A DNA stretch of 64,000 nucleotides, from contig CAYUBE010000001.1 in the NCBI GenBank assembly GCA_964442965.1, positions 3,301-67,300 of the forward strand, given 5' to 3'. Both the position numbers and the translations under genes were made by a program. Positions within the stretch are counted from its first letter, which is position 1. Every line of letters begins with the position of its first letter. Below, piece by piece: positions 20,698 to 61,942 of the stretch. Under the pieces are notes generated by a model. That model was not told the DNA's origin. It searched no databases and worked only from the letters and a program-made list of their open reading frames with translations. The DNA is from an uncultured Candidatus Saccharibacteria bacterium (GTDB lineage Bacteria; Patescibacteriota; Minisyncoccia; UBA6257; 2-01-FULL-56-20).

Positions 20698-20753
20698 GTC
20701 ATTCCGGCGAAGGCCGGAATCCCTCCTTATTCTTGATAAATACTTGGATTCTC
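20698..20753 (+). repeat. intergenic repeat family copy 1 (GTCATTCCGGCGAAGGCCGGAATCC...TGGATTC)
   Basis: matches copies at 39412, 60543, 61886(inv). Confidence 0.6.
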
Positions 20754-20798
20754 GCCCGCGCAGGAGCGGCAAAAGTCAATCAGATTCGAATTTCACTC

Positions 20799-22112
20799 AT
20801 GGACCAAAAAGAGAAATCAAAAGAGAAGCCCGAAGCATTTCGGGTTCCCAAGGGGATGCATGACGTCGTTCCTGCAGACGAGCCGTATTGGGAAAAGATA
20901 GAAGGCGCGGTGCGCGCGCTGGCGCGCGCCTACGGCTTCAGCCGTCTCGAGCCGCCGATCATGGAAGATGCCCTGCTCTATAATAAAACCTCCGGCGAGG
21001 AGAGCGATGTCGTCGAAAAGGAGATGTATACTCTGCGGACGAAAGGAGGCGACCTCTTGGCGCTTCGCCCGGAGTATACGCCGGGCATCTGCCGCGCGTA
21101 TCTCGAGCACGGCATGGGCCGCCTGCCACAGCCGCAGAAAATATCCTCATTCGGTCCCTTATTCCGGCACGACCGGCCGCAGCTTGGCCGCAGCCGGCAA
21201 TTCTCCCAGGCTGAGTTCGACATCATCGGCGGGCCGAATGATCCTATCTATGACGCGGAGATCATCACTATCTTTGCCAATCTTCTCGCAGAGCTGAAGA
21301 TAAAGAACCCCGTTCTCAAGATAAATTCGATTGGGGATCGCGTATGCCGGCCGAATTACAAGCGCCAGCTTCAGAACTATTATAAAAATTACGAAAAGGA
21401 GCTCTGCGAGGATTGCGTGCGGCGCCTTAAGAACAACCCGCTGAAACTGCTCGATTGCAAACAGCCGCAGTGCCAGCCGTTCAAGGAAAAGGCGCCGAAT
21501 TTTCTCGACAAACTTTGTTCCGCCTGTAAAGGACATTTCCGGTCGACGCTTGAGTATTTGGAAGAGGTCGGCATTACATACGAGGTCGATCCTCGATTGG
21601 TGCGCGGTCTCGATTACTACAACAGGACCGTGTTTGAATTTTTTACCGGCGATAAGGAAGCGGAAGTCGGGGCTCTGGGCGGCGGCGGACGGTACGATTA
21701 TCTGATGGAAATGATCGGCGGCCACGCGATGCCCGCTGTGGGAACCGCCCTCGGCGTTGAACGTTTGATCGCGGTCATGCGGGCGAAGGGGATTGTCGTT
21801 CCGCCGCGCTCCGTGAAAAGAGTATTTCTCGCACACGCAGGAACGCTTGCAAAAAAGAATGCATTTGCACTTCGTGAAGAGCTTCGCAGGTCGGGTATCT
21901 ACGTCGCGGAAGCACTCGCAAAGGATTCGCTCGGTGCCCAATTGAAGGCGGCGGACAAAGAGGGTGTCGGGATCGCTCTCATCCTTGGACAGAAAGAGGT
22001 CTACGAGAAAAGCGTCATCGTCCGCGATCTTGGCGCCGGCACCCAGGAATCGGTGTTGATTGAAAAAATTGTCGACGAAATAAAAAGAAGACTCAAGAAT
22101 CATGATTCTTGA
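20799..22112 (+). CDS. hisS: histidine--tRNA ligase (start taken at MDQKEKSKEK; ORF opens at 20733)
   Basis: class II aaRS motifs, HisRS-typical core and anticodon-binding domain. Confidence 0.9.
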   Translation: MDQKEKSKEKPEAFRVPKGMHDVVPADEPYWEKIEGAVRALARAYGFSRLEPPIMEDALLYNKTSGEESDVVEKEMYTLRTKGGDLLALRPEYTPGICRAYLEHGMGRLPQPQKISSFGPLFRHDRPQLGRSRQFSQAEFDIIGGPNDPIYDAEIITIFANLLAELKIKNPVLKINSIGDRVCRPNYKRQLQNYYKNYEKELCEDCVRRLKNNPLKLLDCKQPQCQPFKEKAPNFLDKLCSACKGHFRSTLEYLEEVGITYEVDPRLVRGLDYYNRTVFEFFTGDKEAEVGALGGGGRYDYLMEMIGGHAMPAVGTALGVERLIAVMRAKGIVVPPRSVKRVFLAHAGTLAKKNAFALREELRRSGIYVAEALAKDSLGAQLKAADKEGVGIALILGQKEVYEKSVIVRDLGAGTQESVLIEKIVDEIKRRLKNHDS

Positions 22113-22116
22113 GTCT
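22089..22116. promoter_or_regulatory. perfect 28-bp palindrome AGACTCAAGAATCATGATTCTTGAGTCT spanning the hisS stop codon
   Basis: read directly: left half reverse-complements right half exactly; member of GAATC/GATTC motif family. Confidence 0.6.
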
Positions 22117-22138
22117 CGATTCCTGAACCAATTTTCCT

Positions 22139-22558
22139 ATGAACCCCGACTGTCTTTTTTGTAAAATTATCACCAAGACAATTCCCGCAAAGATCGTTTA
22201 CGAGGACGAGCACGTAATCGCTTTTCTCGATATCACACCGCGCGCGCCGGGACATACGATGGTCATTCCGAAATATCATGCGCCGACCCTGATCGCGCTT
22301 CCCGATGGTGAGGTTGCACTGCTTTTCGGCACCGTCAAAAAAACGGCAGCGATGCTTATGTCAGCTCTCCATCCTGACGGCATCACGATCGGCATCAATC
22401 AGGGCCGCGCGAGCGGCCAGGAGGTCGATCATCTGCACGTGCATCTCATGCCGCGCTTCCATGGCGATGGCGGCAGTGCCGTTCAGTCAGTCGTTCATAA
22501 TGTGCCGCAGGAATCGCTCGACGAAATGTGCGAAAAGATAAAAAAAGCACCGCTCTAG
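22139..22558 (+). CDS. HIT-family (histidine triad) hydrolase
   Basis: HLHVHLMPR histidine triad. Confidence 0.85.
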   Translation: MNPDCLFCKIITKTIPAKIVYEDEHVIAFLDITPRAPGHTMVIPKYHAPTLIALPDGEVALLFGTVKKTAAMLMSALHPDGITIGINQGRASGQEVDHLHVHLMPRFHGDGGSAVQSVVHNVPQESLDEMCEKIKKAPL

Positions 22559-22591
22559 AGCGGTGCTTTTTTTATCTCACGATGGCCAGCC

Positions 22592-60391: not shown

Positions 60392-60478
60392 CGGAGAGGG
60401 TGAGATTCGAACTCACGGAGCCCTTTCGAGCTCACCGCATTTCGAGTGCGGCGCCTTCGACCACTCAGCCACCTCTCC
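60392..60478 (-). tRNA. tRNA-Ser (anticodon CGA), type II with long variable arm
   Basis: acceptor GGAGAGG/CCTCTCC, D-arm GCT-GAGTGGTCGAA-GGC, anticodon arm CCGCA-CTCGAAA-TGCGG, variable arm GAGCTC-gaaa-GGGCTC, T-arm GTGAG-TTCGAAT-CTCAC, disc G. Confidence 0.9.
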
Positions 60479-60542
60479 TTCTTCCGCGCTTTATTGTATA
60501 GGATTTTTACAAGAAAGCAACGAAACTGAAAAAAGAAAAGAT

Positions 60543-60586
60543 GTCATTTCGGCGAAAGCCGGAATCCAGAAAAACCTGGATCCCGT
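60543..60586 (+). repeat. intergenic repeat family copy (GTCATTTCGGCGAAAGCCGGAATCCAGAAAAACCTGGATCCCG), upstream of peptidase gene
   Basis: inverted partner at 61886-61942. Confidence 0.65.
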
Positions 60587-60682
60587 TTTGCAACGGGATG
60601 ACATAGGAGAGCCGAAATCTAATGATTAAATATATATTAAAGAACATTTTGCGTTCGGATTTTTTCTTGGTAGAACGTATGG

Positions 60683-61822
60683 ATGAAAAACAAAAAATAT
60701 ATTGTCCTGCTTGGCGGGGTTGGTTTGGCGGTGGTAGTTGTGCTGTTTGCAGGTATTGTTCCCGCCGGTCCGGCGGGTGCGGCGTACCGGTTTTCAAATT
60801 TTAAAGGGAAGCCACCGATCCACGTGAGGACTTCCGGCGGGAAATCGCCGTCGGGCATTGCACCGAGCGAGATAAAAAAAGTGTATAACCTGCCTGCGTC
60901 CGGTGGGTCAGGGACCATTGCGATCATTGATGCCTATGACGATGCGACGACCGAAAACGATCTCGCTGTTTTTGATGCTGCTTATGGCCTTGCGGCATGC
61001 ACTTCGAAAAATGGTTGCCTCGAAAAACATCTGATGGCGACTTCCACCAAAACAAACAGCGGCTGGGCGCTTGAAACGTCACTTGATGTCGAATGGGCGC
61101 ATGCCATCGCGCCTCAGGCGAAAATACTTCTCGTTGAGGCAAAAACCGAAAGCGGCGCGAATTTGCTTTCGGCGATTGATTATGCGACGGCACGGAAGGA
61201 TGTCGTCGCGGTTTCGATGAGTTGGGGCGGTGATGAATTCTCGGATGAATTGTCATACGATTCGCACTTTGCGAGCAAGTATGGTGCGGTATTTTTTGCG
61301 TCGTCAGGAGATGGCGGCACGGGCGTAAGCTGGCCGGCGGTTTCGCCGTCGGTCGTCGGTGTCGGTGGCACGTCGCTCGAACTTCTCGCGAATGGGACAC
61401 TTGTTTCGGAATCGGCGTGGTCGGGGAGCGGCGGCGGCGTGAGTGCGTACGAAACCCAACCGGATTATCAGAAAACATATTCCGTGCCAAAAGCGAACGG
61501 CATGCGCGCGGTTCCGGATGTTTCTTATGATGCCGATCCTGCGTCGGGATACGCTGTCTATAAAACAACCGGCTCGTCAAAAAACGGATGGTACACGGTT
61601 GGCGGAACGAGCGCGGGTGCGCCTCAGTGGGCGGCGATTTACGCGCTCGGGCATTCGGCGACGCTTGCTGCCATGTATGGCGACAAGGCATCGTCCAGCA
61701 CGCTCAAATTTTTCCGCGACATAGCGAGCGGCTCAAATGGTACCTGTAAATATTATTGCGATGCAAGAAAACGCTACGATTACGTGACCGGCCTTGGCAG
61801 TCCGCAGACCGTCAATTTCTAA
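60683..61822 (+). CDS. S8/S53-family serine peptidase (sedolisin-like), secreted
   Basis: TIAIIDAYDD, SSGDGG, GGTSAGAPQWAA catalytic-Ser region; signal/TM at N-terminus. Confidence 0.8.
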   Translation: MKNKKYIVLLGGVGLAVVVVLFAGIVPAGPAGAAYRFSNFKGKPPIHVRTSGGKSPSGIAPSEIKKVYNLPASGGSGTIAIIDAYDDATTENDLAVFDAAYGLAACTSKNGCLEKHLMATSTKTNSGWALETSLDVEWAHAIAPQAKILLVEAKTESGANLLSAIDYATARKDVVAVSMSWGGDEFSDELSYDSHFASKYGAVFFASSGDGGTGVSWPAVSPSVVGVGGTSLELLANGTLVSESAWSGSGGGVSAYETQPDYQKTYSVPKANGMRAVPDVSYDADPASGYAVYKTTGSSKNGWYTVGGTSAGAPQWAAIYALGHSATLAAMYGDKASSSTLKFFRDIASGSNGTCKYYCDARKRYDYVTGLGSPQTVNF

Positions 61823-61885
61823 TTTATCTTAGGTGAATTTCCTGCATCTTGGCTCAGGGATGAATGTTTGTCGTCCCGATGAAAA

Positions 61886-61942
61886 TCGGGATCCAGAAAG
61901 TTTGATTTCGGTTCTGGATTCCGGCGTTCGCCGGAATGACAG
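61886..61942 (-). repeat. intergenic repeat family copy in inverted orientation (revcomp = CTGTCATTCCGGCGAACGCCGGAATCCAGAACCGAAATCAAACTTTCTGGATCCCGA)
   Basis: downstream of peptidase gene; forms inverted pair with 60543 copy. Confidence 0.65.

Follow-up and report, generated by a model that had tools for sequence, protein, structure and literature searches.

In a 64,000-nt stretch of contig CAYUBE010000001.1 (hereafter designated the window), which derives from a genome of the Patescibacteria (Minisyncoccia), we found a family of short intergenic repeats made of GTCATTCCGGCG...-type hairpins. The family is real and, by sequence and structure, belongs to the hairpin repeats known as Ssn-related motifs (SRMs) and the Neisseria Transformation Sequence (NTS). 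Thus, the elements are probably Patescibacteria copies of a pan-bacterial motif, arranged mostly as inverted doublets, and we propose that their hairpins are recognized by the nuclease Ssn. Four copies, starting at positions 20697, 39411, 60542, and 61914, match exactly the published SRM pattern, HGTCWYN(0-2)YYVSBRHN(0-5)WNVSBRGN(0-2)RNCYNB (Chenal et al., Nat Commun 2025, PMC11893778), whereas Markov simulations gave 0.23 matches and control loci 0.42 per 64 kb (760 kb of unrelated metagenome loci taken from a MacB-permease scan, the best match listed being 58% identical). The survey in which SRMs were described covered RefSeq representative genomes, mainly of Pseudomonadati, and leaves Patescibacteria unmentioned (PMC11893778).

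Anatomy of the repeat copies

Sequence searches located the A-type core, GTCATTCCGGCGAA(G/A/C)GCCGGAATC, on the plus strand at 20698 (GTCATTCCGGCGAAGGCCGGAATC) and 39412 (GTCATTCCGGCGAAAGCCGGAATC) and on the minus strand at 61917–61940 (GTCATTCCGGCGAACGCCGGAATC), together with a further A-type core on the plus strand at 60543 (GTCATTTCGGCGAAAGCCGGAATC); these are the four main copies that an initial annotation of the window had described, and all were recovered at the starts it gave. The shorter, C-type variant, GTCATTCCGAGCT(T/G)TGCGAGGAATC, was likewise found on the plus strand at 29722 (GTCATTCCGAGCTTTGCGAGGAATC) and 38596 (GTCATTCCGAGCTGTGCGAGGAATC), with the annotated identity of 24/25. 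The relaxed pattern GTCATTYCG-N8-CGRAATC (up to two mismatches) gave 6 matches in the window against 0.56 expected, a number attained in none of 100 shuffles. As annotated, every copy is intergenic on the map of open reading frames (ORFs), and two, at 38596 and 39412, lie inside an operon, the macA-like/ABC ATPase/MacB permease cluster. In total, the 64 kb of the window hold four strict SRM copies and about six variant arms, which are grouped below into six elements, E1 to E6.

E1 (20697–20724, plus strand) is an A-type SRM hairpin, TGTCATTCCGGCGAAGGCCGGAATCCCT, with an 8-bp stem and a GAAG loop, and begins 8 nt past the lepB stop codon and about 75 nt ahead of the hisS start; its downstream partner, reaching to about 20778, is degenerate. 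E2 (29722–29746, plus strand) is a C-type variant that does not match the published SRM pattern and has ATTCC/GGAAT as its outer stem, GC/GC as its inner pair, and tandem G.A mismatches; an NYN-domain gene lies upstream of it, and a terminator-like hairpin distinct from it follows at 29756–29795. E3 (38596–38671) is a doublet of the C-type arm at 38596–38620 (plus strand) and an inverted D-type arm, GTCATCCTGAGTcccgcaatggcggaACGAAGGAT, at 38637–38671 (minus strand; ...CTCAGGATGAC), occupying the gap between the ABC ATPase and MacB permease genes; the copy at 38596, taken at first for a single arm, therefore has an inverted partner. E4 (39411–39493) comprises an A-type SRM at 39411–39438 (plus strand), a CCAG-29 nt-CTGG segment, and an inverted B arm at 39468–39493 (minus strand) that is degenerate with a 1-nt deletion, and it sits between the macA-like stop codon and the ABC ATPase start, the ATG being 13 nt away. 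E5 (60542–60603), located between a tRNA gene and a protease gene, is a compact doublet in which an A-type SRM with a single stem mismatch (60542–60569, plus strand) is joined by CCAG-aaaaac-CTGG to an inverted B arm, TGTCATCCCGTTGCAAAACGGGATCCAG, at 60576–60603 (minus strand). E6 (61869–61941), downstream of the same protease gene and inverted relative to E5, consists of a B arm, TGTCGTCCCGATGAAAATCGGGATCCAG, at 61869–61896 (plus strand), a spacer, and an A-type SRM at 61914–61941 (minus strand).

The initial annotation had ascribed two hairpins to each main copy. The first is present throughout, and the second, CCAG..CTGG, in three of the four, the sequence at 20698 being degenerate (ATCCCT...CTTGGATTC); a third, inverted SRM-like arm had been overlooked at 39468–39493, 60576–60603, and 61869–61896. 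E3, E4, E5, and E6 are inverted doublets built like a REPIN, with two arms on either side of a short spacer. Folded as DNA, the A-type copies form 8-bp stems with 4-nt loops, the stem being perfect in three of them, and all four retain GTC before the stem and C after it; as single-stranded DNA (ssDNA), they are thus stable hairpins with a defined orientation. The whole E5 doublet forms three hairpins, with TGTCAT/ATGACA pairing to close the structure (−17.6 kcal/mol; z = −5.15), and E6 gave z = −4.91.

Relation to the SRM/NTS family and distribution among genomes

The NTS, CGTCATTCCCGCGMAVGCGGGAATCYRG, is a superset of the dRS3 repeat (Chenal et al., PMC11893778). From it, the window copies differ at the first base and at one compensatory C:G to G:C stem pair, whereas their loops (GAAA, GAAG, or GAAC) fit the NTS loop GMAV and their tail, CCAG, fits CYRG. 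They accordingly fall outside the strict NTS (up to one mismatch allowed), the best copies showing three mismatches at the first base and both sides of the one stem pair, and outside the strict dRS3 (ATTCCC-N8-GGGAAT, no mismatch), as they read ATTCCG-N8-CGGAAT. In other words, the inner stem is CCCGC/GCGGG in the NTS and CCGGC/GCCGG here, on a common plan of GTC, an 8-bp stem starting with ATTCC, a GMAV loop, and C(C/T)RG. NTS and SRM repeats further resemble the window copies in being multi-copy and intergenic, in occurring often as inverted pairs and in an NTS-gene-NTS bracket, and in their spread across phyla. Neisseria dRS3 and NIMEs share with them the 20-bp ATTCCN-N8-NGGAAT palindrome, the inverted pairs around short spacers, and the clustering around genes for surface or secreted proteins; dRS3 is associated with a filamentous-phage integrase. 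The differences from known SRM systems lie in the Patescibacteria host, the modest copy number, and the failure to find ssnA in 71 kb.

Pairing within this fixed geometry was bimodal among 1209 candidate sequences, the background peaking at 2–3 of 8 pairs and 162 sequences forming a second mode at 8/8. The fully paired stems were diverse (ATTCCGGC, ATTCCCGC, ATCCCGGC, ACCCCGGC, and others), and among 29 distinct stem variants 7 of the 8 pairs were changed on both sides, a figure that is descriptive only, as the set was selected for pairing.

The exact 24-nt core, GTCATTCCGGC-N4-GCCGGAATC, was found in 116 IMG/VR stretches and in at least 120 stretches of species-representative genomes from at least nine phyla. 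Hosts among the matches listed include alpha-, beta-, and gammaproteobacteria, Desulfobacterota, Chloroflexota, Planctomycetota, Bacteroidota/Ignavibacteria, Actinomycetota, Cloacimonadota, Bipolaricaulota, and Zixibacteria. The family is therefore not genome-specific, contrary to what had been supposed at first; far from being absent outside the window, the motif is much more widespread than was assumed. In 258 instances of the exact core, the positions left unspecified in the search were conserved, with C ahead of the core, G(A/C)A(G/A) in the loop, and CCAG behind, and they thereby reproduce the NTS consensus. Doublets of A and B arms in the design seen here occur in Dyella, Chromatiales, Competibacteraceae, Bipolaricaulota, and Ectothiorhodospiraceae; 67 nt of E4, including part of its spacer, are 88% identical to two IMG/VR loci (L078 and L106), and the exact core of the E2 type is present in 29 IMG/VR stretches. 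Collections of annotated plasmids and phages yielded weak or variant matches only, in unannotated intergenic DNA.

Two observations were made on copies elsewhere. In a metagenome-assembled genome of Dehalococcoidia (locus L185), an SRM-containing unit of about 62 nt is tandemly duplicated four times at 3083–3313 and two times at 4980–5067; the six direct copies at about 62-nt spacing had the appearance of a CRISPR array, which was rejected because the "spacers" are identical, as in a tandem duplication. In many viral-contig copies, such as those of six IMG/VR loci (L034, L041, L046, L080, L086, and L098), the SRM tail ...GGAATCCAGGAG is followed by an ATG 5–15 nt on, and its conserved CCAG runs into AGGAG, a Shine-Dalgarno-like sequence immediately ahead of genes.

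The Ssn nuclease, the host, and competing explanations

SsnA is a 94-aa single-domain GIY-YIG protein (cd10448) that acts in Neisseria natural transformation and binds and cuts the NTS hairpin as ssDNA only, on one strand only, with the cut falling a few nucleotides upstream; cleavage depends critically on the three nucleotides 5' of the palindrome and binding on the C immediately 3' of it, and RNA is not a substrate (PMC11893778). Ssn homologues of other bacteria cut their own variants, with biochemistry reported only for the Neisseria and Wolbachia enzymes (PMC11893778). By analogy with these enzymes, recognition and nicking of the hairpins by an Ssn are likely in the present genome. When the DNA becomes single-stranded, during replication or after uptake through the ComEC/DprA machinery encoded on the contig, each arm would fold into an 8-bp hairpin with GTC before it and C after it, and a small single-domain GIY-YIG nuclease (Ssn, cd10448) would recognize the oriented hairpin and cut the strand a few nucleotides 5' of it. 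Recombination or transformation would then be modulated for DNA bearing the sites; a more speculative outcome would be spread of the repeat in a REP/RAYT-like way. That the genome encodes an Ssn, that the copies are cut, and that competence is affected are what we infer, and the presence of a cognate Ssn is the main uncertainty.

The linkage between such hairpins and ssn genes was analyzed in ssn loci from IMG/VR and assemblies, using the GIY-YIG ORF of one SRM locus (L036) and its homologues. A strict SRM lay within 200 nt of ssn in 9 of 16 loci, and a GTC-hairpin within 300 nt in 13 of 15 further loci. Typically, one hairpin precedes the gene by about 42 nt on the gene's own strand, and a second, inverted one follows it by about 26–46 nt on the minus strand. 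At two low-GC loci (L378 and L379), ssn directly adjoins GTCATTCC...GGAATC hairpins whose inner stems differ, and in Sphingomonas arms of the GTCACCCCGG and GTCATGCCGG types flank the ssn gene. In the window, E5 and E6 bracket a gene at 60683–61822 (plus strand) in the same manner (SRM> gene <SRM). Its 379-aa product has a hydrophobic, signal-like N-terminal segment and a GGTSAGAP serine-protease-like motif and gave no Pfam match; the unit was considered as a transposon and rejected, since the product shows these features and none of a transposase or nuclease.

As a side observation, the N- or C-terminal extensions of many Ssn ORFs in databases (among them P0359, P0388, P0379, P0456, and P0492) are translated flanking SRM hairpins, giving peptides such as SFPRKRES, SFLRKQES, VIPAKAGI, VMLNLFQHP, and IPAFAGMT. 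These extensions are spurious because the gene calls over-extended into the hairpins.

The host is placed by its HisRS homologues, which are 82, 73, and 68% identical and named Minisyncoccia, Patescibacteria group, and Paceibacterota, respectively. Competence and type IV pilus genes lie on the contig at 54169–56516, at 14535–15572 on the minus strand, and at 25712–27566; they comprise DprA, PilM/PilN, and a ComEC split into Competence-domain and Lactamase_B ORFs, and a T2SSE ATPase is encoded as well. Natural competence is therefore plausible from the gene content of the contig. In three relatives (L241, L243, and L244; HisRS identity 88, 83, and 81%), synteny is kept and no SRM lies between lepB and hisS, the gap being 1 nt in L241; no intergenic SRM was found across about 64 kb of synteny in the three. 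Contigs of these relatives are ERZ25039486 contig_17077, ERZ25039519 contig_75231, and ERZ25039509 contig_207620. These results indicate a gain of SRMs in the lineage of the window or a loss in all three relatives. The inverted doublets and the empty orthologous site support the earlier description of dispersed, small palindromic elements resembling repetitive extragenic palindromes (REPs) or miniature inverted-repeat transposable elements; of the features of the latter, inverted ends (TGTCAT/ATGACA) and an empty site are present, with flanks too diverged for a target-site duplication to be read. Insertion polymorphism between strains, which had been suggested as a check, was not seen: strain-level contigs assembled from other samples match the window at about 100% identity, with the same copies in place. 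This population is represented in ERZ27250145, ERZ27249851, SRR6946416, and JGI 3300014160/61. In one independent assembly of the strain (Logan SRR6946416; L387), the contig ends at 39408, exactly where the element at 39412 starts, a break that is expected because the repeat is multi-copy.

Several results weigh against recognition by an Ssn in this genome. Changing the palindrome while keeping the hairpin abolished the activity of the Neisseria meningitidis SsnA (PMC11893778), so that a cognate enzyme of matching specificity would be needed here, and the B-, C-, and D-type arms do not fit the SRM pattern as published. No Ssn/GIY-YIG ORF was detected by regular expression, profile hidden Markov model, or Pfam lists on the 71-kb contig (JGI 3300041809 Ga0455670_0003378; 71,293 nt, of which the window is positions 5280–69279) or in about 120 kb of the relatives' loci. 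Protein searches seeded with the Sphingopyxis Ssn and a low-GC Ssn profile returned sphingomonads, Omnitrophota, Latescibacterota, Caldiserica, and Desulfosarcina, and no homologue named as Patescibacteria. Moreover, a single Ssn ORF was present in 1.9 Mb around 236 loci with CCGGC-type SRMs; for this exact stem type, linkage to ssn thus rests on the pattern of the family in general and on a single locus (L365, at a distance of 2.5 kb). The peptide VIPAKAGI in Ssn ORF extensions is ambiguous between CCGGC and CCCGC stems, L378 being of the CCCGC type.

The same negative searches are what would be expected if the copies were orphans or relics, left by horizontal transfer or past Ssn activity and now, with no nuclease present, neutral or mildly structured intergenic DNA. 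This is rather unlikely. Degenerate arms (the E1 partner, the E4 B arm with its deletion, and the mismatched E5 stem) would fit such decay, and, of the genomes that hold more than 200 SRMs, just 81% have an SsnA homologue (PMC11893778). On the other hand, the stem is perfect in three A-type copies, with GTC and the 3' C retained in all four; the 71-kb contig probably represents only a modest share of the genome (0.8–0.9 Mb is the length of related near-complete contigs); and the lack of the copies in relatives favours recent gain over old decay.

An action at the RNA level, as terminators, attenuators, mRNA stabilizers, or small RNAs comparable to Wolbachia WsnRNA-46, seems very improbable. 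Two elements are necessarily co-transcribed, being inside an operon, and the ...GGAATCCAGGAG tail on IMG/VR contigs often stands just ahead of a start codon, at the 5–15 nt mentioned above. E6, and E6 only, also aligns end to end with the Rfam family WsnRNA46 (RF02625), at 27.9 bits and so below the gathering score of 65.3; that family is itself a doublet, TGTCAT..GGGATCCAG-spacer-CTGGATTCC..ATGACA, sharing with E6 the doublet design while the inner stems are unrelated. Such doublets can therefore be transcribed elsewhere, a finding that does not carry over to the window. Yet no repeat element reached the gathering score of any Rfam family, SsnA is inactive on RNA, and the asymmetric GTC...C motif has no uniform orientation with respect to transcription, being sense at E1 and E5 but antisense at E4 and E6. 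The terminator or attenuator role put forward in the initial annotation likewise found no support, because no T-run follows the A- or C-type hairpins as an intrinsic terminator, a GC-rich hairpin with a direct T-run, would have it; the terminator scan flagged only the E5 B arm, marginally and on the minus strand, and the genuine terminator-like hairpin near E2 is separate from the repeat and comes right after it. As for Wolbachia itself, its WsnRNA46 small-RNA locus is apparently an SRM-type repeat, and Wolbachia is listed as SRM-rich (PMC11893778).

That these are classical REP/REPIN elements mobilized by a RAYT (an IS200/IS605-like Y1 transposase) is the least probable of these alternatives, and very unlikely: the inverted doublet with its spacer fits the REPIN definition, and the repeats are intergenic, multi-copy, and lacking at the corresponding site in relatives, but their conserved 5' head is GTCAT, RAYT-associated REPs reportedly carrying a GTAG-type head, no Y1_Tnp (PF01797) occurs among the Pfam matches of called genes over most of the contig (about 12.3–14.4 and 27.9–29.5 kb of the window lying outside) or in the relatives' loci, and the gene co-localized with the motif family in independent loci encodes a GIY-YIG nuclease, as it also does in the published SRM work (PMC11893778). 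REP, BIME, and REPIN elements are like SRMs in being short extragenic palindromes whose inverted doublets can fold into larger hairpins, in having an empty site in relatives, and in being recognized as ssDNA by a small, usually single-copy enzyme of the nuclease type; they differ in the head, GTAG versus GTCAT, and in the enzyme, HUH/Y1 versus GIY-YIG.

Other features of the window and significance

A second intergenic motif family, GATTCCTGAAYC, is present in four exact copies, and in five with at most one mismatch against 1.13 expected; its sites are at 133–202, 22088–22135, 28480–28560, 57284–57326, and 62715–62781. The motif lies within runs of TGAATC/GATTCA/AAGAATC half-sites, 12–25 nt upstream of start codons, and could be of the operator or promoter type. 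Besides these, a LOOT RNA (Rfam RF03000) scored 71.8 bits, above the gathering score, at 8021–8143 on the minus strand; a 105-nt internal direct repeat of 71% identity (22739–22843 and 23051–23155) lies inside an ORF at 22592–23386 (minus strand); and ATTCCCTTATGGCTTCCTCCAATTTT occurs three times, at 44654, 45710, and 46862 (about 1.1 kb apart), near genes of the AbiEii/DUF6922 type.

The SRM family and its nuclease were first described in 2025, and with the copies reported here its hosts come to include ultra-small bacteria reliant on DNA uptake. SRM hairpins translate to spurious peptides (VIPAKAGI, SFRRKPES, and IPAFAGMT) and can break assemblies; recognizing them thus improves annotation. 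The relatives that lack copies, together with the bracket shared by ssn and a cargo gene, offer material for the question of SRM mobility. To our knowledge, SRM transposition has never been demonstrated. It is conceivable, though we regard it as unlikely, that SRM doublets are non-autonomous mobile analogues of REPINs, moved by Ssn, which recently invaded this Patescibacteria lineage, bracket genes such as that of the secreted protease at 60683–61822, and shape the retention of DNA. If this were true, Ssn-mobilized doublets would represent a new mechanism of transposition or recombination, and DNA scavenging by bacteria of the candidate phyla radiation would come under a new layer of control, in that SRM doublets would shape what small-genome symbionts keep of the DNA taken up by their obligate competence machinery.

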